Virus record (IMG/VR): IMGVR_UViG_3300032319_000930
Location: 1-41,621 of that record
Reading direction: 5' to 3' (one strand)
Source: a virus
Taxonomy: Duplodnaviria > Caudoviricetes
DNA length: 41,621 nt
The notes below the pieces were generated by a model. That model searched no databases. It was not told the DNA's origin and was given only the letters and a program-made list of their open reading frames with translations. Positions 11,779-40,013 of the stretch are shown here, piece by piece (position 1 is the stretch's first letter; every line of letters begins with the position of its first letter). Made by a program: the position numbers and the translations under genes.

Positions 11779-12150
11779 TTACCCGTTCTGTGAACCTGTA
11801 ATGGCTTGTGCGGAGTCCAGGGTTATACCGTTGATTGTATCGCGTTCCACTACTCCTTGCACTGTGTAGCGGCCTAGGGCAACGTTGTACGACGCCTCGG
11901 TCTCGTAAGGGAAAATATCATCGTATGTTGTTACGTTGACAGCTCCGAAAATAAAGTTCCCCTGAGAAAGGCCTCCAGCGCCACCGTTTTGTCCACTTAT
12001 CAACAACTGAGCGCCGATTGGAGGCAATTCGGTTACGGTCCACTGGGGATTTTGCTCCAGCACTTCGCGATACGAGAGTGAATCCTCAAAGTAGAGGTAA
12101 CCGAGTTTCCTCCACGTGAACTGGGGTTGATACGGGACAGAGATGGCCAT
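11779..12150 (-). CDS. tail X / LysM-like baseplate protein
   Basis: TWRKLGYLYF.D...Y.EVLEQNP.....PIGAQL.I resembles P2 gpX/LysM. Confidence 0.6.
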   Translation of the reverse strand: MAISVPYQPQFTWRKLGYLYFEDSLSYREVLEQNPQWTVTELPPIGAQLLISGQNGGAGGLSQGNFIFGAVNVTTYDDIFPYETEASYNVALGRYTVQGVVERDTINGITLDSAQAITGSQNG

Positions 12151-12521
12151 TAGAAACGTTTCTGAGCGCGGGCGAGGAGGCGGGCACCGATTGAAGTGCC
12201 ACGAGTCAGTTCAAAACCGCTTTCCTTGGCTACTTCAGCAGCAGCTTTCTCGAGGGCGACTGGGTTTGCGGGTACAAACACGTTTTCGTCAACGGACCTT
12301 TTGGAGAGTTTTTCGCGAATGTCTGTTTGAATCTTCTCAGCAGGTGTTGCTTCGGGAGCGGCTACCGGCTCTTCGTTAAGGGACTCGGTTTCCAGGTTGA
12401 CCGGAGTTTTGTCTTCCTGCTCAATCACCGGGCTCTGGATTTTGTCGGGCTCAGGTGTTACCTGAAGATCCCCAACAGCGGGTTCGGTGTTTTTTGCAGT
12501 TCGTGTGCGTGTCATTGTCAT
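12150..12521 (-). CDS. hypothetical protein (acidic, Pro-rich, probably disordered)
   Basis: ATGA overlap with the upstream stop at 12518-12521. Fills the gap in the operon. Confidence 0.6.
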   Translation of the reverse strand: MTMTRTRTAKNTEPAVGDLQVTPEPDKIQSPVIEQEDKTPVNLETESLNEEPVAAPEATPAEKIQTDIREKLSKRSVDENVFVPANPVALEKAAAEVAKESGFELTRGTSIGARLLARAQKRF

Positions 12522-12931
12522 CGTTTTCGTGAAAGGATATTTTTCCAAGCAATCGGTACGATTTGCTCGAGAGAGATGTCTGGAACACCCATCCAGGGGC
12601 GTGCCGGTTGTCGGCCGATTCCAAACTGATTATCCGGACCATAGTCAGTGGAACGGACAAGAAAGCGGTTTCCTTGGGTGAAGATGTAAGCCGAGTCGAG
12701 CATTGTTCCAGTTGCTCGTAAAATGGGTTGACCGGGGTACTTCTTGGCTTTCCAGGCTGCGTAGCGAGGATTGAGTTGAGCCCAGGGTCGTCCCGTTGTC
12801 GGATCAACTTCTTTTCTCCAGAACGCAGGATGGTCGTCCAGAAGAACAGGCGTCCATTCTTCCTTCGTAGGTTTCCACCAGTTCAAGTTCATGGGAACGA
12901 GTCCGTTGCCTTGAGTCTTGAATCGAATCAT
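12518..12931 (-). CDS. phage virion morphogenesis / tail completion protein (Mu gpG / P2 gpS-like)
   Basis: DP.TG.PWA.L..Y..WK, IL..TG.M..S, Y....QFG...PARPWMG. Start at 12931 through an ATGA overlap. Confidence 0.75.
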   Translation of the reverse strand: MIRFKTQGNGLVPMNLNWWKPTKEEWTPVLLDDHPAFWRKEVDPTTGRPWAQLNPRYAAWKAKKYPGQPILRATGTMLDSAYIFTQGNRFLVRSTDYGPDNQFGIGRQPARPWMGVPDISLEQIVPIAWKNILSRKR

Positions 12932-27754: not shown

Positions 27755-28100
27755 TTTTTTCGGTCAGATCTGCGGCAGCAATTGCATATTCTGTGCCAAT
27801 GCGTTGCGCTTCTTCGTCTGTAATGGTGGCGGCTTTGCGAAGTTTTTCCACCAGTGGCTCAAGTTCGTCCGGGACGTGAATGAAGCGACCGTCGTCGCGT
27901 ACGCAGTAAAGTAAGGTCACTTCCTGACGGCAACCGCACTGCCAATCAAGGGTGGGGTGACCGACCTCAACGCGCAATTCGACGCGATAGCGAGAGAAAC
28001 TTGCGGTGACTTCTGCGAGTTTGAAGCATCCGTTGACGACCGCAACCCTGATCGGGGAGGCAAAGAGGCGGGCGACGGCTTGTTTGGTGAGTTTGATCAT
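27738..28100 (-). CDS. hypothetical protein
   Basis: 120 aa. ATG at the repeat +1, stop inside the type B palindrome. Confidence 0.7.
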   Translation of the reverse strand: MIKLTKQAVARLFASPIRVAVVNGCFKLAEVTASFSRYRVELRVEVGHPTLDWQCGCRQEVTLLYCVRDDGRFIHVPDELEPLVEKLRKAATITDEEAQRIGTEYAIAAADLTEKSQLSN

Positions 28101-28174
28101 GAGTTAAATATAGCGCGTTTTCGTCCAAAAGTAAAGGGGGTAAACCGTACCTCCGGGGTACGGGTAACCGTACC
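28098..28174 (-). promoter_or_regulatory. promoter repeat 9 (type A)
   Basis: Type A element, TTTACT-17-TATATT-6-ATG. Confidence 0.85.
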
Positions 28175-28318
28175 TCACCCCACTTTCTCAACGAGGGCCA
28201 GCCGACCGGTGGTCTGGAAGACCGCCTCGGCGTGGTGCCAGGCCTCCTCGTAGGAGCGGAAGCGGGTGGGTTGTTCGCCGGGGATCCAGGCGATGTAGGT
28301 AGTGGTTTTTTTCTTCAT
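28175..28318 (-). CDS. small protein (47 aa), not in the ORF track
   Basis: MKKKTTTYIAWIPGEQPTRFRSYEEAWHHAEAVFQTTGRLALVEKVG. Fills the gap between two repeats exactly. Confidence 0.7.
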   Translation of the reverse strand: MKKKTTTYIAWIPGEQPTRFRSYEEAWHHAEAVFQTTGRLALVEKVG

Positions 28319-28389
28319 GAGTTAAATATAGCGCGTTTTCGGCCAAAAGTAAAGGGGGTGAGTGTCAGTTTGCCCACTGACCCTGATAC
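28316..28389 (-). promoter_or_regulatory. promoter repeat 10 (type B)
   Basis: TTTACT-17-TATATT-6-ATG with GTCAGT..ACTGAC upstream. Confidence 0.8.
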
Positions 28390-28402
28390 ACACGCACTAC
28401 CG

Positions 28403-28600
28403 TTACTTACCTGCAAGGTACTGGTCCTCGATAATGTCCATAAGCGAATCTTCGTCCACTTTCTCAAGGCCATCGGCCTTAAGTTCCCGCCACGTAGGTG
28501 CCGGATCGTGCTCTCGGTAAGCGTTTACGAAAGGAAAAAGTTTGGCCGCCAGAGTTGGATCCAGCTCAACATTGCGCAGATTGTAAATGGTGTTTGACAT
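28403..28600 (-). CDS. small hypothetical protein
   Basis: MSNTIYNLRN..., second gene of its cassette. Confidence 0.65.
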   Translation of the reverse strand: MSNTIYNLRNVELDPTLAAKLFPFVNAYREHDPAPTWRELKADGLEKVDEDSLMDIIEDQYLAGK

Positions 28601-31035: not shown

Positions 31036-31308
31036 TCAACCTACCTCGTAGTAACCTGGATCGCGGTCACCGTTGACAATCTCTAGCTGGTTCTCGTAAA
31101 ACTTTTCTACGACCCACTGGGTAATACCCACTACGCGCAGTTCGTTTTCGATGATATACAAACATTCGGCGCGAAGTAACTGGAACTGGTCTAAAGTTCC
31201 TTCGTACCCCAAGAAAGCGTCGTCGTAAAGTAACTCGTTGTGGAGCCGAAAAGCGGCGCTCAGGGCCAGCAGGTGGTTGGTTTCGTTCAGGTTTTCCTCG
31301 TTTCTCAT
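31036..31308 (-). CDS. small acidic protein (paralog of 28620 and 30033)
   Basis: LHNELLYD...GYEG...F..L..E, QLEIVNGDRD. Confidence 0.75.
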   Translation of the reverse strand: MRNEENLNETNHLLALSAAFRLHNELLYDDAFLGYEGTLDQFQLLRAECLYIIENELRVVGITQWVVEKFYENQLEIVNGDRDPGYYEVG

Positions 31309-31382
31309 GAGTTAAATATAGGTCATTTTCGCTCAAAAGTAAAGGGGGCAAACCGTACCCCGTAGGTAGGGGAAACCGTACC
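31306..31382 (-). promoter_or_regulatory. promoter repeat 16 (type A variant)
   Basis: TTTACT-17-TATATT-6-ATG. Confidence 0.8.
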
Positions 31383-31518
31383 TCTCGCAAAGTTTTAACA
31401 ACGGTTGGTCTTGTTAAAGGTTTGGTCGGTTTGCTTTAATAAGGTCTAAAATAATGTTTACTTTGTGGCACATAATAAATCAATAATTGCAATAATGAAA
31501 TAATGATAATAAAGGCAA

Positions 31519-31628
31519 TGGCGGTCGCGGGGTAATGGCGGTCGCTCAATAATTGCTCTTCGATAAATAACTCAATAACTGCAATAACCATATAAAAGCA
31601 GTGGCGGTCGCGGGGTAATGGCGGTCGC
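31519..31628. repeat. 27-bp direct repeat, each copy with two TGGCGGTCGC 10-mers, in an AT-rich spacer
   Basis: tggcggtcgcggggtaatggcggtcgc at 31519-31545 and 31602-31628. Confidence 0.85.
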
Positions 31629-31907
31629 GATAATAATACAATAACGAGGCAACGCTTCAAAACCCTTGCGGCGTCTGACTTTGTAACTGCCATGCGGGGG
31701 TGATTTTTTGGAGTGTTGTTAAAAATGGGGGATTTTTTGTTAGAAATCTGCTTTTTAGTTGAAACCGCGTTACATCCAGGTTTTTCCCTTTCTTGCTCTG
31801 TTACTAACCTCTTCTCACTTTGCGAGAAATGTTTGCGAACTTCTCGCAAACTTCACAAGATAAAAAATGCAATGTCACTGCTGCCAAAATGGAAATGTAA
31901 CGCGGTT

Positions 31908-33417: not shown

Positions 33418-33490
33418 GAACTAAATATAGCTCAATTTCTCCCAAAAGAAAAGGGGGCAAACCGCCCCCTTCGAGTAGGGTTAACCGCCC
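33415..33490 (-). promoter_or_regulatory. promoter repeat 17 (type A variant)
   Basis: TATATT-6-ATG with GGGCGGTT direct repeats upstream. Confidence 0.7.
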
Positions 33491-33500
33491 CAGGTCATTT

Positions 33501-33998
33501 TCACTTCAAGGTAAAACCTTGCTCCACAACTTCCACCGCATAACCCTCCCGCAGGTTACGCATCCGAGTTGCCATTCCTTTCCGCCAACTTGGGTTCTGG
33601 TTACTACGATTCGCATTTCGCTCATTCAGAGTTTCCTCGTCCGCATCCAGATAATAAATAGTTACATCCGAACATTCGTCTCGGAAAAAGTCAAAGAATT
33701 TGGAGTTGGACATACGCTCGCCTTCAAAATAAAACGTCCAATCGTCCCACTCTGGATTTGCATTATGTCGTGCAATCCACTCTCGATACTTAGGCCCGCA
33801 ACCTTTACTTAAACGGTCGGTCCCCGAAAACACCTGTTTATCGTAAATACCTGCAACAATAACGTTATCGTCGTGAAACAGAGTATAAACAACTAGTCCC
33901 TGTTTTTGTATAGAGCAACCACCAAGAGTCGCGATAAATTTTTTCATGACCGTGCTTTTACCAGCAGCAGGTTCACCAATAAGACCGACGATTTTCAT
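33501..33998 (-). CDS. P-loop nucleotide kinase (5hmU DNA-kinase-like)
   Basis: Walker A GEPAAGKST, G.Y...FSGTDRLS, FEGERM resemble the kinases that accompany aGPT-Pplase genes. Confidence 0.75.
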   Translation of the reverse strand: MKIVGLIGEPAAGKSTVMKKFIATLGGCSIQKQGLVVYTLFHDDNVIVAGIYDKQVFSGTDRLSKGCGPKYREWIARHNANPEWDDWTFYFEGERMSNSKFFDFFRDECSDVTIYYLDADEETLNERNANRSNQNPSWRKGMATRMRNLREGYAVEVVEQGFTLK

Positions 33999-34873
33999 TT
34001 GTTTCTCCCCAGGATTTGTTTTAATTGCGCCCTCTTTTGAAGGGAGTTGTAGTTAGGCCTCAACCTAACCTCACTTAAATCTTTTTGAATATCCTCCAAT
34101 GTGAAATAAGGATACTCTTCCTCCAGTTTTAGTTTAATCTCCTCGGCTCGTTTTTGCTCCAAGGAGAAACCAGATTCCTCGCTATAGTCAGACCCCATTA
34201 AGTTAATCCCCTCTATAAATTTGCCAACAGGTACATCTTTAGCGTAAACAGCAAGGTGAATAAGTTTTTCTGTATATTCTGGACAGAAAGCGCCCGAACG
34301 AAAAACCGATCCCAATATCCAGTACCCCGGAATATACCCCACGGTTTCCTCCAGCTCCGCCATATAGTTCATGGGATAGCAATAGGTTGGATTAAAATCT
34401 GTTTTAATAATATAAGTTTGCAGTGCTTCCAGGTGACGCTTCAACAAAGGTAAATGCTCTTGACTAAAATAATACACAGCATTGACGCCCCGATACCATA
34501 ACTTTGCTGGATTACCATTTTCATCGGCTTGAAGATTGCACTGTAGAGCAACACCGTAATTAGATGGCGGGGCCCATATATGAAAATCATAGTCTAAATA
34601 CATCACCTCGTCGTAACCCGACTCCAAACTTTTTATCATTTCAGCAACTCGTGTGTAGTCGCTGATACTAGTGGCTTTTCTAACATTTCGTTTTGTGTAA
34701 CGAGCTGCTAGTTCAATCGCCACCTCATCTTGATCGCATCGAGTTACCCCTTTAAACTCAAATCCCGAAATCGAAAGAACACTTTCTCGTTTTTTTGCTC
34801 TTTGCAAAAGAGCGGTTGGACAAGGTCGGTCATTCGGTAGTTCCGGCCAAACCGAGAATGCGAGTTTTTTCAT
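33995..34873 (-). CDS. putative GT-A glycosyltransferase
   Basis: SDYTR followed by GYDEVMYLDYD (DxD after a hydrophobic strand). Confidence 0.55.
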   Translation of the reverse strand: MKKLAFSVWPELPNDRPCPTALLQRAKKRESVLSISGFEFKGVTRCDQDEVAIELAARYTKRNVRKATSISDYTRVAEMIKSLESGYDEVMYLDYDFHIWAPPSNYGVALQCNLQADENGNPAKLWYRGVNAVYYFSQEHLPLLKRHLEALQTYIIKTDFNPTYCYPMNYMAELEETVGYIPGYWILGSVFRSGAFCPEYTEKLIHLAVYAKDVPVGKFIEGINLMGSDYSEESGFSLEQKRAEEIKLKLEEEYPYFTLEDIQKDLSEVRLRPNYNSLQKRAQLKQILGRNK

Positions 34874-35265
34874 TTTTTCGTAAGTTCGTGAAGTAGGTGG
34901 ACAACTTTGACCTCGGGGACCATAGTTTCGATAATACCTTTTTGAACGGGATCGTCTTCGAAATGCAGAGCGATTCTCATAGTCTTTTGCAATTCTCTCA
35001 AAGTAAGAGCTTTGTGGTAACCGGATATCTCCCGTGTCTTAAGGTGCTCGGGCACCTTACTAAAGATGACCCGGTTGGTAATGCCAAACTTTTTGCACCA
35101 GGCTAATGTTTTATCCCGCTCCTCGTAACTTCTGCCGGTGATGATAATGTCCTCCGGGGAGGGACGAACCCCGGGATTCTCATCCCCAAAGTAAATCACC
35201 CCGTCAAAGTCGAAAGAATTGATGGTCGTAGGAAATGACCAAGGAGGTAAATACATTGCCCTCAC
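34870..35265 (-). CDS. minimal HAD-family phosphatase
   Basis: SFDFDGVI, IITGRS, K, HFEDD. Overlaps the ino1 stop. Confidence 0.8.
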   Translation of the reverse strand: MRAMYLPPWSFPTTINSFDFDGVIYFGDENPGVRPSPEDIIITGRSYEERDKTLAWCKKFGITNRVIFSKVPEHLKTREISGYHKALTLRELQKTMRIALHFEDDPVQKGIIETMVPEVKVVHLLHELTKK

Positions 35266-36413
35266 TTCTCCACTTGGGAACGGTCGGAAGCAAAGCTGTT
35301 TGTAACTTTGAGTTTAGTTAAATTGCGATTGGCAAATGCCTCACACTCAGCTTTTGCATCGGCGTACATAAGTTGCTGCGGAGGAGTTTTCTGAGTCCAC
35401 GCACTTGGACCACGCAGAGCACCAACAATCCCCTCCTCCCGAGCAACTTTCAAGTAACGAATGGCGTCGATAACGACACCCGCAGAGTTCTCACTGTCCT
35501 GCACAGAGAGTTTGGCATCGATCTCAATGGGTGCTCCGCCAAAACCCTCCAACTCGATCTTGAAATAGGCAACTTTATTGTCCTTCAGATAAGGGATGAA
35601 AGTAGAGGGCCCGGCGAACAAAGCATCGTCGTCCACGGGAATCCCTCGGATGTCATTTTGAGCACGAATAACATTTTCTTTCGAGATCTTCTTGCTTGCT
35701 AGACGCTCTTGCGTCATCATGTTGTTGAAATCGCTGTTTCCACCAACATTCAGTTGCTGGTGGTATTTAACAACCGCACCACGATCAAAAGCCAACTCTT
35801 GCAAAACTTGGCTCATGACCGACGCTCCAACTTGGCTACGCATATCGTCACCAATGAGGGGCAATCCCGCATCAATAAACTTTTGCTCCCAAACCGGATC
35901 ACTCGCAATAAACACCGGGATGCAGTTCAAGAAAGCTACATTCGCGCTGAGGCAGGCGTTTGCGTAGAACTCTGTGGCAATCTGAGAACCTACCGGCATG
36001 TAGTTAAGCAGGATGTCAGCTTTAGTATCTCGCAATACTTGAGCAACATCGCAAGGCTCTTCGTTGGAAATACGAAAGCCAAACCGTTCCGGTTGCTCCA
36101 ACATGTGCTGTGAAACACCATCAAAAACGGGTGCCATCTGGACAGTTACACCAGGAGGAACATTCGGGCAAAACACCCTTGCACAGTTCGGAGCAGCAAA
36201 AATTGCTTCGCCAATCGGACGACCAACTTTACGACGATCCACATCAAAAGCCGCGACAAACTCAATATCCGCAGGATGGTAACCGCCAATTCGACTAAAC
36301 ATTACGCCAGGGATGTTTTCTTCTTCGTGATCTTTGTAGAAGTTTACACCCTGATAGAGGGCCGAAAAGCAATTACCAACACCAGCAACTGCAACTTTAA
36401 TTTTCTTAGACAT
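35262..36413 (-). CDS. ino1: myo-inositol-1-phosphate synthase
   Basis: GVGNC.SAL.QG, FDVD..KVG, NYMPVGS..A..FYA, N.IPVFIA, GDD..SQVGA, QLNVGGN.DF.NM...RL.SKKISK, V.DS.NSAG..IDA.R. Confidence 0.95.
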   Translation of the reverse strand: MSKKIKVAVAGVGNCFSALYQGVNFYKDHEEENIPGVMFSRIGGYHPADIEFVAAFDVDRRKVGRPIGEAIFAAPNCARVFCPNVPPGVTVQMAPVFDGVSQHMLEQPERFGFRISNEEPCDVAQVLRDTKADILLNYMPVGSQIATEFYANACLSANVAFLNCIPVFIASDPVWEQKFIDAGLPLIGDDMRSQVGASVMSQVLQELAFDRGAVVKYHQQLNVGGNSDFNNMMTQERLASKKISKENVIRAQNDIRGIPVDDDALFAGPSTFIPYLKDNKVAYFKIELEGFGGAPIEIDAKLSVQDSENSAGVVIDAIRYLKVAREEGIVGALRGPSAWTQKTPPQQLMYADAKAECEAFANRNLTKLKVTNSFASDRSQVEK

Positions 36414-36502
36414 GGAACCTCAATATTTCAGTTTAGATAAGGGTCATTGGTCGAGGAACGTAGGACCCTGGTACTATTATACCCAATAGTTGAGTTTGTA
36501 AA

Positions 36503-37735
36503 CTACGTGTTGATGTAGGAGAAATCTACATAAGGCTTTTCCCAAGCCTCATGTTTTTTGTCTTTGAATCGCAGAAAATTAACGGGATTGTACTTCTTAA
36601 CAAGAGAGTTTCTCTTCCTCGCAGTAAAAGCATCCTCCCAGATATCTAGCATGTCTCGATGACCCTGAGGAGCAACTTTTTTAAGGTTCAAGACTTTATA
36701 AGCATCGGGCTCGTCAGTGTACAAATAATGAGTGTTTAGGTTAAACCCGTGTTCCACAAGAATAGTGAAGTAAGAGGGGTCGTAACCATAGTTGCGAACG
36801 TTTTGCCCTTTCGTCATAAACCCGGAAACGTATGGCACCCAATCGACAATGCCAGGTCCTTCATAATTTTCCCAAACTGTTTTCAAAGCCGTAAACTGCT
36901 CTACCAACTCATTGCTGGTCCAAAAAGTGAACTCTTTAATTCGTGGGCCATAGGCGGTTTTACGGTACTCACATTCGACCGACTCAACGTTGTAAATGTC
37001 AACGTGAAACGGCACTCGTTTATTAACTTCTTCCATTAAAACAAATGTCTTCTCCTGCATCAGCTCAATATTTGTTTTGGTCGGCTCGTATTTTAAAACT
37101 TTCCCGTCCGGTTGTTTTTGTTTGCGAGCAATGTCCAAACGATCAAATAAATAACAAATAGAATCGTATTGCGACCAAGTACCTTCGTCGTATAGTTGTT
37201 GATCCCAATAGTCAATATCCCAGTTAAAAAGCTCGTAGAAAGTTTGTTGAGCGAGCCACGCGGTCATACGCCCGATACCTCGTATTTTTCGAAGAGCTTG
37301 GTTTAGTGAGTAGTAGTTTTCTTTTGTAGACCCAACATGCGCAGCAGCATAAAAATAATCATAAATGCTTGATGGTCCAACAAGCTCTTTTAGAGACTGA
37401 ACAAAATCAGGGAAACGTCGAACTCCCCATTTAGTATCGTTACCATATTTCATCCTCCACCAGTTTGCATTGTGCCAGTCAACCAGTTGATCGTGAGGCA
37501 TATTGTACAAGTCCAACTGAAGGGCAATCATGGCCCAGTGGTTACGGTAACTCTGCCCAAAAAGTACACAATAAAGAGCTTTGTCCTCATCGGAAAGCTC
37601 CATCATGTCCGCAATCACTCTAGCCACGTGATGGTGATCACAATCGCCTTCTACCATTCGCACATGTGTAACGCGAGCGAACGCCTCAATTCTATTTTCT
37701 GGCAACCGCCAGTCGGTGTGTACGGTGGTAATCAT
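36503..37735 (-). CDS. alpha-glutamyl/putrescinyl-thymine pyrophosphorylase-like (amino acid:DNA transferase, HhH-glycosylase fold)
   Basis: HhH-like IRGIGRMTAW and C-terminal VESVECEYRK. Sits next to TET/JBP and kinase genes. Confidence 0.7.
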   Translation of the reverse strand: MITTVHTDWRLPENRIEAFARVTHVRMVEGDCDHHHVARVIADMMELSDEDKALYCVLFGQSYRNHWAMIALQLDLYNMPHDQLVDWHNANWWRMKYGNDTKWGVRRFPDFVQSLKELVGPSSIYDYFYAAAHVGSTKENYYSLNQALRKIRGIGRMTAWLAQQTFYELFNWDIDYWDQQLYDEGTWSQYDSICYLFDRLDIARKQKQPDGKVLKYEPTKTNIELMQEKTFVLMEEVNKRVPFHVDIYNVESVECEYRKTAYGPRIKEFTFWTSNELVEQFTALKTVWENYEGPGIVDWVPYVSGFMTKGQNVRNYGYDPSYFTILVEHGFNLNTHYLYTDEPDAYKVLNLKKVAPQGHRDMLDIWEDAFTARKRNSLVKKYNPVNFLRFKDKKHEAWEKPYVDFSYINT

Positions 37736-37795
37736 GCGAGTAAAGTCAGAGTGGTTGATGTTTGCGTCGTAAAGAAAAAGCTGAGCCGTAAAGGA

Positions 37796-39208
37796 TTAAG
37801 AGTGTTTCAGGTGCGGGCTACGCACTTCGACGGGTATCTGATCCGGATCACCCTTCAAGTTGCTGTTAGTGCATTCTTTTTCGTAGTTGTACCCCCCCTC
37901 CTCGGTTCGTAAACGTTTGTAGTTTTCCCAATAAGTGGAACCCCACATTCCCGGGAAGCTTCCTGCCCACTTTTTCTCTCCGGTGCCCAGCTCCGGATGG
38001 TTGATGACTGCGTAGTCCAAGAACTCCCGACGACAAATCTCGCATCTCAAGGAGTCTAACTTGATGATGTTATCTCGTTGGTAAAACACAAGCCAGACAC
38101 TCTCGAAGTCTGAAGAGGTGTTTTTAAAGGGCATCATACCGTGCATGAGCCCTTGATTATCACCGCCCAAGAAGTCACCGTGCCGAAGATTAAAAGCTAA
38201 ACGCAACTGGGGGAACACAAACTCGCTACCCTCGTAGGTTCCTTTCTCTAAGACAGTTAGTGCAGCAGCAGCATTTTTTGCGTTATTGCCGTCGTAATGG
38301 TACGCCACCTGAAAGTTCCAGTTGGTGGTGATACTGGTAAAACAAGTACCAAACAGGTTGTATGACTCATCTTTCACTTCCTTGAACCTTTTTGAGAGCA
38401 CTTTCCAAGTGTTTGGCATGGTCTCTTTAAGCAAACCATCAATTTCCCGGAACAGAGGCAATTGCTCACAGAAATCTTCGTAGCGGTCCATTGTAGGTTT
38501 AGTAAGGCGGCCAAATGGTGTGCGACCACTTCTGTCAATGGTGCCAAGTACTACGCTGTAAGCTTTATTTCCGCGCGGTTGCGTAGTCACATACCGCTTC
38601 TTAGCATCTTTAGCAGCTTGTTTTCGATTTGCCGATTTGACCCAAGTAGTCATCAGCCATTTGTCAAACCACGCAAGTTTCGCAGCATTCCGTTTGCTAA
38701 TGGCCTCTTCACGAAGAGGTGAAGACGTGCTCTTTTTACGAACCAGGCTATCCCATTTCTCAATTTCGTCGAGGTCAACTAAACCATCACTTTCCGTTTT
38801 GTGCACATAGAAAGTTTCACGAGAAGGAGTTTTATCAGTTGTTAGCTCTTGTGCCTCACTCAGAGTAAGTTCTCGTTTGACTGCTGCGGCGAAAAATTTT
38901 TTCTGACCCTCGGTAAGGCGAATCTCAACATTAGTAACCAGCTCACGACCGGCGGCGGCCCCTCTTTGATCGCTCAGCAAAGAACGACTTGCCCAGCGCC
39001 AGTACTTAAAAGTGGGACTGCTCGACTCAACATCGCGAAGAGTTTTCAGAGCCTGCTTGCGAAAAGTTAGCCCCAGAGTGCCGTCTGGCAGGTAAACATC
39101 GCAGTCCTCGTCTATAACTTCGTCAAAATCTCTCTCTGTCGGATAGATTCCCAAGAACTCTTTATCCGATATTTCGTGAAGTTTCTCAAGCTTGATGATG
39201 CGCACCAT
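37796..39208 (-). CDS. TET/JBP-family Fe(II) dioxygenase (atypical)
   Basis: DEDCDVY.P...FRK, RGAAAG, GT.FTSITTN.NF...HYD, G.Y.G...FP....N.R.GD, HG, LVFYQR. Likely start MVRII at 39208. Confidence 0.85.
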   Translation of the reverse strand: MVRIIKLEKLHEISDKEFLGIYPTERDFDEVIDEDCDVYLPDGTLGLTFRKQALKTLRDVESSSPTFKYWRWASRSLLSDQRGAAAGRELVTNVEIRLTEGQKKFFAAAVKRELTLSEAQELTTDKTPSRETFYVHKTESDGLVDLDEIEKWDSLVRKKSTSSPLREEAISKRNAAKLAWFDKWLMTTWVKSANRKQAAKDAKKRYVTTQPRGNKAYSVVLGTIDRSGRTPFGRLTKPTMDRYEDFCEQLPLFREIDGLLKETMPNTWKVLSKRFKEVKDESYNLFGTCFTSITTNWNFQVAYHYDGNNAKNAAAALTVLEKGTYEGSEFVFPQLRLAFNLRHGDFLGGDNQGLMHGMMPFKNTSSDFESVWLVFYQRDNIIKLDSLRCEICRREFLDYAVINHPELGTGEKKWAGSFPGMWGSTYWENYKRLRTEEGGYNYEKECTNSNLKGDPDQIPVEVRSPHLKHS

Positions 39209-39330
39209 GGTTTTAGTTGTCGTTGTGCAAGTTATACCCATTTTTAGTATAGCAAAAAGCCGCCCCCGTAAAGCGAGCGGCGTCTTCTGTTTGGCTAACG
39301 CCAAACGGTCGCGGCTTCGCCGCTTCCCGC

Positions 39331-39596: not shown

Positions 39597-40013
39597 TCAA
39601 TAAGAGCAACGAAAATAGTGGTCCCCAACGCGATCAACGTCATGCTGAATCAAATACGCTGCCGTCTCTTCCCAATCAATGGAGATGCGATAATCAAGGC
39701 GGTCGGTTTCTCCGTCGAAGTAATCCTGAGCCATACGATAGGGACTGTCGTATTCGCCGATATACGCATCAGCAAAATACGCCAAATCATACAAATCATT
39801 CAGTTTGATAAAAGCATCGACAGCTTCGTAACCGTTTTCCTCGCCGAGTTCAACATACTCATCGTAATACTTAACAAAATCCTCTTCGAAATGTTCGTCG
39901 ATAAACTCCAACATGCGACCGAGGTCATATTGGCTCTCAACGAAACCATCGATTTTTTCAAGAGTTTCCGCAGAGAAAATCTCACGGTAGTTGGCTGTGA
40001 AGGTGACAGGCAT
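39597..40013 (-). CDS. ArdA-like acidic antirestriction protein (DNA mimic)
   Basis: Very acidic. DAYIGEYDS...A..Y, IDWE..A..L...D, YFR match the ArdA C-terminal pattern. Confidence 0.65.
   Translation of the reverse strand: MPVTFTANYREIFSAETLEKIDGFVESQYDLGRMLEFIDEHFEEDFVKYYDEYVELGEENGYEAVDAFIKLNDLYDLAYFADAYIGEYDSPYRMAQDYFDGETDRLDYRISIDWEETAAYLIQHDVDRVGDHYFRCSY

Follow-up and report, generated by a model that had tools for sequence, protein, structure and literature searches.

What would a phage do with its own myo-inositol-1-phosphate synthase (MIPS) in the midst of genes for DNA base modification? This question is raised by a 41,621-nt stretch of viral DNA (the window, ~19% of its genome) from a relative of Synechococcus phage S-CBWM1, in which six open reading frames encode a TET/JBP dioxygenase, an ADDT transferase, MIPS, a capless HAD phosphatase, a GT-A glycosyltransferase (GT), and a P-loop kinase (33501-39208; Table 1). 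The initial annotation had described six contiguous, co-oriented genes, and we found the reading frames in this arrangement, all on the minus strand, with Pfam matches for the Tet_JBP, ADDT, MIPS, and kinase families that bear out these assignments. The gene set was seen again in dozens of viral contigs, and this recurrence rules out a chance grouping.

Gene layout and enzyme assignments

The last four genes had been described as overlapping, which holds for the HAD/GT and GT/kinase junctions (4 nt each) and probably fails for MIPS/HAD. As close HAD homologues start at MYLPPW, ATG 35256 is a likelier HAD start than GTG 35265, leaving a short gap behind MIPS, whereas an overlap would require GTG 35265. 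Gaps of 60 and 89 nt separate TET from ADDT and ADDT from MIPS, respectively. Terminator-like sites numbered 9, compared to a shuffle mean of 7.2; a promoter scan stayed at chance level, and the sequence TGGGTATAA, shared upstream of TET and MIPS, was not significant (8 one-mismatch matches versus 5.4 expected).

Table 1. Features of the cluster, with their positions in the window and the matches behind each assignment
Feature	Position	Strand	Basis
TET/JBP-family dioxygenase, 470 aa	37796-39208	-	PF12851, E 2e-14
ADDT / aGPT-Pplase2 DNA transferase, 410 aa	36503-37735	-	PF18724, E 2e-10
Myo-inositol-1-phosphate synthase, actinobacterial type, 383 aa	35262-36413	-	PF01658, E 9e-23
Capless HAD phosphatase, predicted for inositol-phosphate	34870-35265	-	phrog_415, E 6e-7; no Pfam match
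GT-A-fold glycosyltransferase-like protein, D94-x-D96, accessory	33995-34873	-	predicted fold; no Pfam or PHROG match
Predicted 5-hmU DNA kinase of the P-loop nucleotide kinase 3 family	33501-33998	-	PF18751, E 2e-10
Terminator-like hairpin 3' of kinase, end of cluster	33450-33472	-	consensus match only

The ADDT scored 41.3 bits against a curated cut-off of 26.2 and aligned over its full length with ViI gp247 (hhalign, 98.1% probability), the closer of the two characterised ADDTs that we compared (M6 gp51 scored 2.7%). Its motif, E251-S252 plus C255, has E251 and C255 invariant in 15 aligned rows and in line with the ViI and M6 motifs, where Glu-Thr/Ser binds metal and Cys is catalytic (PMC8989533, PMC13458397). 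The same pairing of a P-loop kinase with such an ADDT is found in the 5-hmdU kinase plus AADT/aGPT-Pplase2 phages ViI, M6, PaMx11, PhiW-14, and SH-Ab 15599 (PMC8989533, PMC13458397). ViI gp247 makes a C-O bond (PMC8989533), an ether via a hydroxyl being already formed there. For the window ADDT, we predict that 5-phosphomethyl-U in DNA is the acceptor of a transferred nucleophile; the enzyme differs from those of ViI and M6 in forming a separate clade with other pocket residues. Sequence searches of the PDB with the ADDT profile, the HAD profile, and the single TET gave nothing useful, single-sequence ADDT scans returned near relatives only, and the aGPT-Pplase1 helical domain had no match in the window in a search that also left its control unrecovered.

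The initial annotation had named a P-loop kinase and cited the phosphorylation of 5hmU in phages such as phiW-14, SP10, ViI, and M6. It is indeed a P-loop kinase, and when three sequences were searched with its profile, M6 gp54 was matched at E 4.5e-7; aligned pairwise, the two proteins showed no similarity. The window kinase belongs to PF18751 with no match to PF18748, the family of the tested M6 enzyme. Hence, it may act like a 5-hmdU DNA kinase, albeit outside the M6 gp54 type. This difference in family counts against the kinase step as assigned.

The synthase matched the M. tuberculosis-type Ino1 structure 1gr0 at E 6e-97, with an identical NAD-binding motif and catalytic Asp/Lys set, and D190, D228, K241, K245, K280, D306, and K342, which we take to be the catalytic residues, were invariant in 98/98 distinct phage MIPS. 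The phage enzymes are predicted to make inositol-1-phosphate from glucose-6-phosphate. It is very unlikely that they make another cyclitol or a sugar-phosphate that ADDT attaches: one close family member, 6k96, is a five-membered-cyclitol-phosphate synthase (E 3e-60), and one locus (L116) has an aldolase-like gene within its cluster, yet the match to 1gr0 is far stronger, and all 98 phage enzymes have R or K at position 192, where 1gr0 has K and 6k96 has A.

The HAD motifs (DxD, Thr, Lys, and Asp) were invariant in 21 rows, and the model (pLDDT 91) shows a Rossmannoid fold for which Foldseek returned the T4 Pnkp phosphatase (5uj0, E 1e-3) and the Nir2 LNS2 domain. The substrates of these closest structural neighbours are nucleic-acid ends or lipids, which counts against a role as inositol phosphatase.

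For the glycosyltransferase (pLDDT 88), Foldseek matches were GT-A enzymes at low TM scores of 0.3-0.4, the best being the PBCV-1 glycosyltransferase 2p6w (E 2e-6, TM 0.38). D94 and D96 were invariant in 14 rows, and phage RP13 has a homologue. The GT had originally been counted among the pathway genes; we rejected it as a core step and regard it as accessory, since it occurs in only 2/79 ADDT loci, one of them a copy of the source phage.

Linkage of ino1 to one transferase clade

The core inference of the initial annotation withstood the survey proposed there: we found ino1 to be tightly linked to the ADDT clade of the window and absent where the ADDT belongs to another clade. Across 79 loci from an ADDT scan seeded with MIPS-linked sequences, so that the figures hold for that clade only, MIPS was present in 77, HAD in 73, TET in 63, and the kinase in 62; among loci not already found via MIPS, the fraction was 57/59. 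In 50,697 phage records, full-length MIPS was present in 19, the very ones matched by the HAD, and ADDT matches fell only in Cr30 and RP13, both with MIPS. Cr30, a cultured Caulobacter phage, carries all five core genes (TET, kinase, ADDT, MIPS, and HAD) together with a TAGT. MIPS was absent from the Caulobacter and Synechococcus control genomes. In a tree, the MIPS-linked ADDTs fell on one side of a branch with SH-aLRT 100 (22 versus 9 rows), and at 90% identity clustering 41/42 clade members were accompanied by MIPS. One clade member, L116, is a 56%-complete record without MIPS, with the order ADDT-HAD-kinase plus the class II aldolase-like gene, which counts against a strict ADDT-MIPS linkage. 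The clade comprises three deep subclades (~25% mutual identity), in which the pocket residue after the Cys is E, Q, or M; as the subclades differ in their pocket, their donors may differ as well, which counts against inositol as the common donor.

A natural swap was provided by five loci (L202, L205, L208, L225, and L229) whose TETs are 64-76% identical to that of the window: these have a TET-to-kinase run with an ADDT of another clade, and neither MIPS nor HAD. In further relatives and in S-CBWM1, the slot is occupied by TAGT plus nucleotide-sugar supply genes, and MIPS was absent from four records of this kind. S-CBWM1 resembles the window in using the same genomic slot for a donor-supply module. 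MIPS and HAD also occur together inside 7-deazaguanine clusters (8/38 MIPS loci with FolE, QueC, or QueE), a version of the module carried by cultured Menderaviruses, and in thymidylate-synthase/aGPT-Pplase1 clusters of the hydroxymethylcytosine type (marker gene in 46/80 HAD loci). A clade ADDT elsewhere in deazaguanine-type genomes was found in none of five records, in a search that had no positive control.

These distributions bear on two other readings. In the first, MIPS and HAD would serve host metabolism or virion decoration (osmolyte, lipid, or capsid glycan) as chance neighbours of an ADDT whose donor is an amine or amino acid of the host. A Menderavirus paper gives ino1 a presumed bacterial origin (PMC9025141), the best GT-A fold match glycosylates a viral capsid, and L025, L033, and L034 (3/38 MIPS loci) are without HAD and without all three modification contexts. 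We nevertheless regard this reading as highly improbable, because MIPS and HAD are gone exactly where the ADDT clade changes and because they are found in three unrelated DNA-modification clusters. The second, which we consider unlikely to a lesser degree, has an inositol derivative as the donor: inositol-1-phosphate would be transferred and then dephosphorylated on DNA by HAD, or an oxidised or glycosylated inositol would be used. Such a route would suit a capless HAD resembling the T4 Pnkp phosphatase, a nucleic-acid enzyme, as well as the inositol-dehydrogenase-family oxidoreductase that L003 has between TET and ADDT, and the TAGT and GT4 genes in 7/79 and 9/79 ADDT loci, respectively. However, HAD follows MIPS whatever the base (78/80 HAD loci, across all three modification contexts), which fits a soluble-donor module, and the small HADs of arabinosylation clusters have been described as sugar-phosphate enzymes (PMC13326640).

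The dioxygenase and its target base

The iron triad of the TET (H304, D306, and H356) is present and is retained in 120/120 of its closest homologues. In an alignment with human TET2, S370 falls on the Arg of RISLVFY (the 2-oxoglutarate-binding residue, presumably R1896), and W372 on the neighbouring Ser. The Arg, which holds the 2-oxoglutarate C5-carboxylate, occurs in 0/120 of the closest homologues, whereas Arg and Ser are both retained in 13/13 sister sequences, and the enzymes of S-CBWM1 and Cr30 likewise bear the Arg. An ESM Atlas search returned Tet_JBP clusters only, and pN was 0.16-0.19 compared to a pS of 0.72-0.85. The missing Arg counts against a standard 2-oxoglutarate oxidation of T. 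That the Arg was lost in adapting to inositol was considered and rejected: 33/40 MIPS-linked TETs still have it, and the Arg-less ones pair with other modules, occurring also with TAGT and with non-inositol ADDTs.

We also weighed whether the Arg-less TET may not hydroxylate T at all, being either a non-catalytic DNA-binding partner or an enzyme that couples an inositol-derived co-substrate straight to the methyl group. The latter would resemble CMD1, an algal TET homologue with the iron triad and an altered co-substrate pocket, which is unable to bind 2-oxoglutarate, its co-substrate being vitamin C (PMC7854593). The clade-wide loss of Arg against its retention in the sisters would suit this reading. 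CMD1 retains the Arg in sequence with its side chain directed away from the site (PMC7854593), a substitution pattern different from that of the window TET. We give this reading very little weight, as Arg is kept by most MIPS-linked TETs, the TAGT and non-inositol ADDTs paired with Arg-less TETs require a hydroxymethyl acceptor, and the Fe triad, kinase, and ADDT are all retained. Furthermore, three partial records of Arg-less relatives are without a ThyA-type hydroxymethylase, and two of these have ThyX.

In its linkage to a P-loop kinase and an AADT, without a C5-methyltransferase, the window TET is like the 5mYOX T-dioxygenases C1/C2 (PMC13229309, PMC8256090), from which it differs in its length, the absence of a ParB match, and the loss of the 2-oxoglutarate-binding Arg and Ser. 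A search for ParB (PF02195) that covered five records bearing the cluster, of which two are complete, gave no match, nor was a ParB gene found nearby. Certain ParB-less clade C1 TETs were without activity on their own (PMC13229309), which, as ParB was not found in those records, counts against the TET step.

Inositol had been proposed to sit on hydroxylated T or 5mC. The latter we set aside: neither the window nor any of five records with the cluster, two of which are complete, yielded a C5-methyltransferase, making 5mC unlikely and T the likelier target.

A candidate inositol-ether pathway and its implications

Reading these genes together, we consider it probable that the cluster directs a post-replicative hypermodification of thymine, in which phage-made myo-inositol is attached to T as an ether. 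TET/JBP would oxidise T in DNA to 5-hydroxymethyluracil, which the P-loop kinase would phosphorylate to 5-phosphomethyl-U. MIPS would convert glucose-6-phosphate to inositol-1-phosphate, from which HAD would release free inositol. C255 of ADDT would then add to C6, the phosphate would be expelled, and an inositol hydroxyl would attack the exocyclic methylene, in the manner of the serine hydroxyl in phage ViI. In the source phage, the inositol may optionally be glycosylated further by the GT-A enzyme. The sequences establish the enzyme families, the retained catalytic residues, and the linkage of the genes, from which each reaction and product is predicted. The nucleoside would have a mass of 420.138 Da (5hmdU +162.053), or 582.191 Da with one further hexose, and the modification would presumably protect against host nucleases. 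A more far-reaching version strikes us as possible but doubtful: the first step of the inositol-ether pathway would be carried out by a conserved TET lineage with a rebuilt co-substrate pocket and not with 2-oxoglutarate, and MIPS-HAD would be a donor module for thymine, cytosine, and 7-deazaguanine pathways alike.

Compared to the ViI and M6 systems, 5hmU is here predicted to arise from TET, and a polyol made by the phage would take the place of an amine or amino acid drawn from the host; in the literature surveyed, only amines and amino acids have been shown as donors for the ADDT family. The same +162 Da is predicted here as for base J and phage TET/TAGT glycosylation (10.1101/2023.12.21.572611), while the predicted first step here would proceed without NDP-sugar activation and, in place of a glycoside, give a carbocycle in alkyl-ether linkage. 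A literature search, which did not cover Iyer et al. 2013, found no inositol-bearing DNA base.

The prediction can be tested directly in cultured phages, with Cr30 carrying the core set of five and Menderaviruses such as Moby the deazaguanine version. If true, a cyclitol on DNA would represent a new class of base modification, and inositol-ether T would be isobaric with base J, such that routine LC-MS could call it a hexosylated base. Independently of this, the Arg-less TET clade offers a lead to co-substrates other than the usual one among TET enzymes. Overall, if the pathway holds, phage ino1 would be reassigned from a host-metabolism gene to a DNA-modification gene.

Gene identities and active-site residues

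The six ORFs lie on the minus strand as the initial annotation placed them, and in HMM searches Pfam gave Tet_JBP (TET, E 2e-14), ADDT (E 2e-10), Inos-1-P_synth (MIPS, E 9e-23), and Ploopntkinase3 (kinase, E 2e-10) for four of the proteins. These modification-enzyme families were reportedly defined by Iyer et al. in 2013. The 131-aa and 292-aa proteins had no Pfam match; the AlphaFold model of the former (pLDDT 91) matches the HAD fold of T4 Pnkp phosphatase and LNS2, and that of the latter (pLDDT 88) matches GT-A glycosyltransferases with TM scores of just 0.3-0.4. Capsid, portal, sheath, polymerase, and topoisomerase genes identify the window as a phage fragment, estimated at ~19% of a complete genome. 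Its polymerase shares 58% identity with the one encoded by Synechococcus phage S-CBWM1, and from this kinship we guess at a cyanobacterial host. An ArdA-like anti-restriction gene directly upstream of the cluster is consistent with a counter-defence region. An identical TGGGTATAA precedes both TET and MIPS as a possible phage promoter element, its occurrences with one mismatch permitted showing no significance versus shuffles. Two ORF translations elsewhere have stretches in common (HELNIARFRPKVKGV; MREVR...), which suggests that the small early-type genes include repeated DNA.

The MIPS aligned over its full length to PDB 1gr0 (E 6e-97), more strongly than to the five-membered-cyclitol synthase 6k96 (E 3e-60), and D190, D228, K241, K245, K280, D306, and K342, which we take to be catalytic, were invariant in 98/98 distinct phage MIPS. 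ADDT residues E251 and C255, kept in 15/15 alignment rows, align with the Cys-Glu motif of M6 gp51 and ViI gp247, where both residues are reported as essential (PMC8989533) and the motif Glu-Thr as metal-binding (PMC13458397). Of these two characterised enzymes, the closer was ViI gp247 (hhalign 98.1%, versus 2.7% for M6 gp51), which joins serine via its hydroxyl (PMC8989533). The residue following Cys, a reported donor determinant (PMC13458397), is E in the window ADDT at the position that we infer by offset, whereas M6 has K and ViI has W. The kinase belongs to PF18751 and M6 gp54 to PF18748; pairwise BLAST between them gave no match, and a profile of MIPS-linked kinases matched M6 gp54 (E 4.5e-7, search of three sequences).

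Linkage of inositol genes to DNA modification

We surveyed ino1/ADDT co-occurrence by an ADDT-alignment scan, whose best 80 of 83 stretches form 79 loci. MIPS was present in 77 of these, including 57 of the 59 not previously found via MIPS, alongside HAD (73), TET (63), kinase (62), GT4 (9), TAGT (7), and the GT-A gene (2); after 90% identity clustering, 41/42 clade members had MIPS. As the seeds were MIPS-linked, the linkage is demonstrated for this ADDT clade only. ViI gp247 matches 379 phage records; with MIPS matched in 20 records of the set, no more than 20 of the 379 could carry it. One of the two MIPS-negative loci, L108, stops within ADDT; the other, L116, lies in a record that is 56% complete and shows no MIPS, and it possibly uses a different polyol donor. 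A two-domain oxidoreductase encoded between TET and ADDT in L003 could oxidise or epimerise inositol. Public annotations of L040, L117, and L121 wrongly name the TETs 'SNF2 DNA repair protein' and the DNA kinases 'terminase small subunit', and the pathway is therefore hidden in them.

MIPS and HAD occur in three contexts: ADDT/thymine, 7-deazaguanine, and thymidylate-synthase/aGPT-Pplase1, the third scored by its marker gene. A MIPS-seeded scan of viral contigs yielded 38 loci, including one copy of the window phage, with HAD in 31, ADDT in 22, FolE, QueC, or QueE in 8, and the third marker in 3; two (L013, L030) are contigs truncated upstream with HAD and kinase present, and three (L025, L033, L034) showed no HAD and none of the contexts. 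Among 50,697 phage records, 20 had MIPS, 19 at full length, and HAD matched those very 19. The cultured Caulobacter phage Cr30 holds TET, ADDT, TAGT, ino1, HAD, and kinase within one region, RP13 has a GT-A homologue, an ADDT-like gene, ino1, and HAD, and Menderavirus Moby carries ino1 and HAD between folE and queC/tgt-like/queE. In the best 80 of 434 HAD-seeded loci, MIPS was found in 78 and the third marker in 46, making this the commonest context there; one such locus, L152, was inspected throughout. The 7-deazaguanine clusters (FolE, QueC, QueE, QueD, TGT/DpdA-like) hold ino1, mostly plus HAD, with an extra GT4 gene in L020 and L027. The MIPS gene of L037 is split over several frames, by either insertion or assembly error, and is intact in the near-identical L089.

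Features and loci (L, database-scan loci; P, TET homologue sequences)
Feature	Position	Content
TET/JBP, Arg-less, Ser-less clade	window 37796-39208 (-); P0018-P0137	iron triad kept; several different downstream modules
ADDT	window 36503-37735 (-)	
MIPS (ino1)	window 35262-36413 (-)	
HAD	window 34870-35265 (-)	
GT-A protein	window 33995-34873 (-)	
P-loop kinase	window 33501-33998 (-)	
ArdA-like	window 39597-40013	phrog_36653, E 1e-13
TGGGTATAA	window 36477-36485; 39232-39240	
ORFs with common stretches	window 27957-28597; 31067-31849	
Cluster without MIPS	L116:5778-10909	MIPS-clade ADDT, HAD, kinase, class II aldolase-like, radical SAM, FkbM methyltransferase
Oxidoreductase	L003:742-2385	547 aa, two GFO/IDH/MocA domains
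Mislabelled genes	L040:3709-5037, 12057-12602; L117:3729-5165; L121:16686-17249	
Moby deazaguanine cluster	L039:8201-13615	with ino1
Further 7-deazaguanine loci	L018, L020, L024, L027, L031, L032, L036, L038	with ino1
Third context	L152:2888-9913; L023	MIPS+HAD, thymidylate-synthase homologue, aGPT-Pplase1-like, ~360-aa protein, C5-methyltransferase-like
Split MIPS	L037:8001-9121	

Module exchange behind an atypical TET

TET-seeded scans (at least 43 metagenome and 39 viral loci, many ending before the downstream genes) revealed that the slot downstream of TET differs among close relatives. Some have a MIPS-clade ADDT together with MIPS and HAD. Five loci complete through to the kinase (L202, L205, L208, L225, L229), with TETs 64-76% identical to the window's, hold another ADDT, adjoined in two by a glutamine amidotransferase, and lack both MIPS and HAD. 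In many other relatives, as in S-CBWM1, the slot contains TAGT along with genes for a nucleotidyltransferase, a sugar kinase, and a small HAD; no MIPS was found in the records of four TAGT-type relatives (one complete, three 51-61% complete). A tree was built from 31 selected ADDTs, with M6 gp51 omitted as a long branch; in it, the 22 MIPS-clade rows, including L116, share one side of a branch (SH-aLRT 100). Given this slot variation and tree, MIPS and HAD go with the transferase, not with TET or kinase, and occupy the place of the donor-supply module. This swap pattern is the strongest argument that the ADDT donor would be inositol or a close derivative.

The window TET retains H304, D306, and H356. 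Human TET2 has RIS, its arginine presumably being R1896, at the place where the window protein carries S370 and W372. The Arg that binds the 2-oxoglutarate C5-carboxylate is described as strictly conserved (PMC7854593). In the best 120 of 169 homologues, the iron triad was present in all and this Arg in none; Arg and Ser occur in 13/13 sister TETs, S-CBWM1 included (some near-duplicates), against which positions 300 and 358 covary with the Arg/Ser state. The gene is conserved (pN 0.16-0.19, pS 0.72-0.85, six relatives). We infer that the enzyme still produces 5hmU with a rebuilt pocket, in which a compensating residue may replace the Arg; perhaps it uses another co-substrate. A link between Arg loss and inositol was rejected, because 33/40 MIPS-linked TETs keep the Arg and Arg-less TETs occur with TAGT and with other ADDTs. 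Tandem TET paralogues, mostly both with Arg, exist in related phages (L258, L261, L262, L264, L269, L270).

Target base and predicted product

The initial annotation had proposed hydroxylated T or 5mC as the acceptor. Neither the window nor any of five cluster-bearing records (two complete) yielded a C5-methyltransferase, which speaks against 5mC; ParB was likewise not found in those five records. Cr30 has a strong ThyA match. S-CBWM1 and three partial relatives have no ThyA-type gene; ThyX is present in S-CBWM1 and in two of those relatives. T oxidised post-replication is the simplest reading and agrees with PMC8989533 and PMC13229309.

In the proposed pathway, TET would convert T to 5hmU, the kinase would form 5-phosphomethyl-U, and ADDT would turn this into an inositol ether with inositol supplied by MIPS and HAD, the GT-A enzyme optionally adding a sugar. 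MIPS had no match in Caulobacter and Synechococcus control genomes, which would explain why the phage must bring its own. Computed masses are 258.085 for 5hmdU, 420.138 with inositol, 582.191 with a further hexose, and 500.104 with inositol phosphate; 5hmdU plus inositol is isobaric with base J.

We found no description of an inositol-bearing DNA base in the literature, although older, subscription, or supplementary sources could already note the linkage. The word 'inositol' is absent from the main texts of PMC13229309, PMC8989533, PMC13458397, PMC6884629, PMC8256090, and 10.1101/2023.04.13.536721, as it is from 12 supplementary files accompanying PMC13229309 and one accompanying PMC13458397. 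Its mentions in PMC13326640 and 10.1101/2023.12.21.572611 belong to names of structural matches, and PMC9025141 gives phage ino1 as a bacteria-like gene. The product is quite probably one with inositol or inositol derivatives, and we lean, with less assurance, toward an inositol ether of thymine. Overall, the cluster is real and widely conserved, and we predict that it represents a known kind of thymine hypermodification but with a cyclitol donor.
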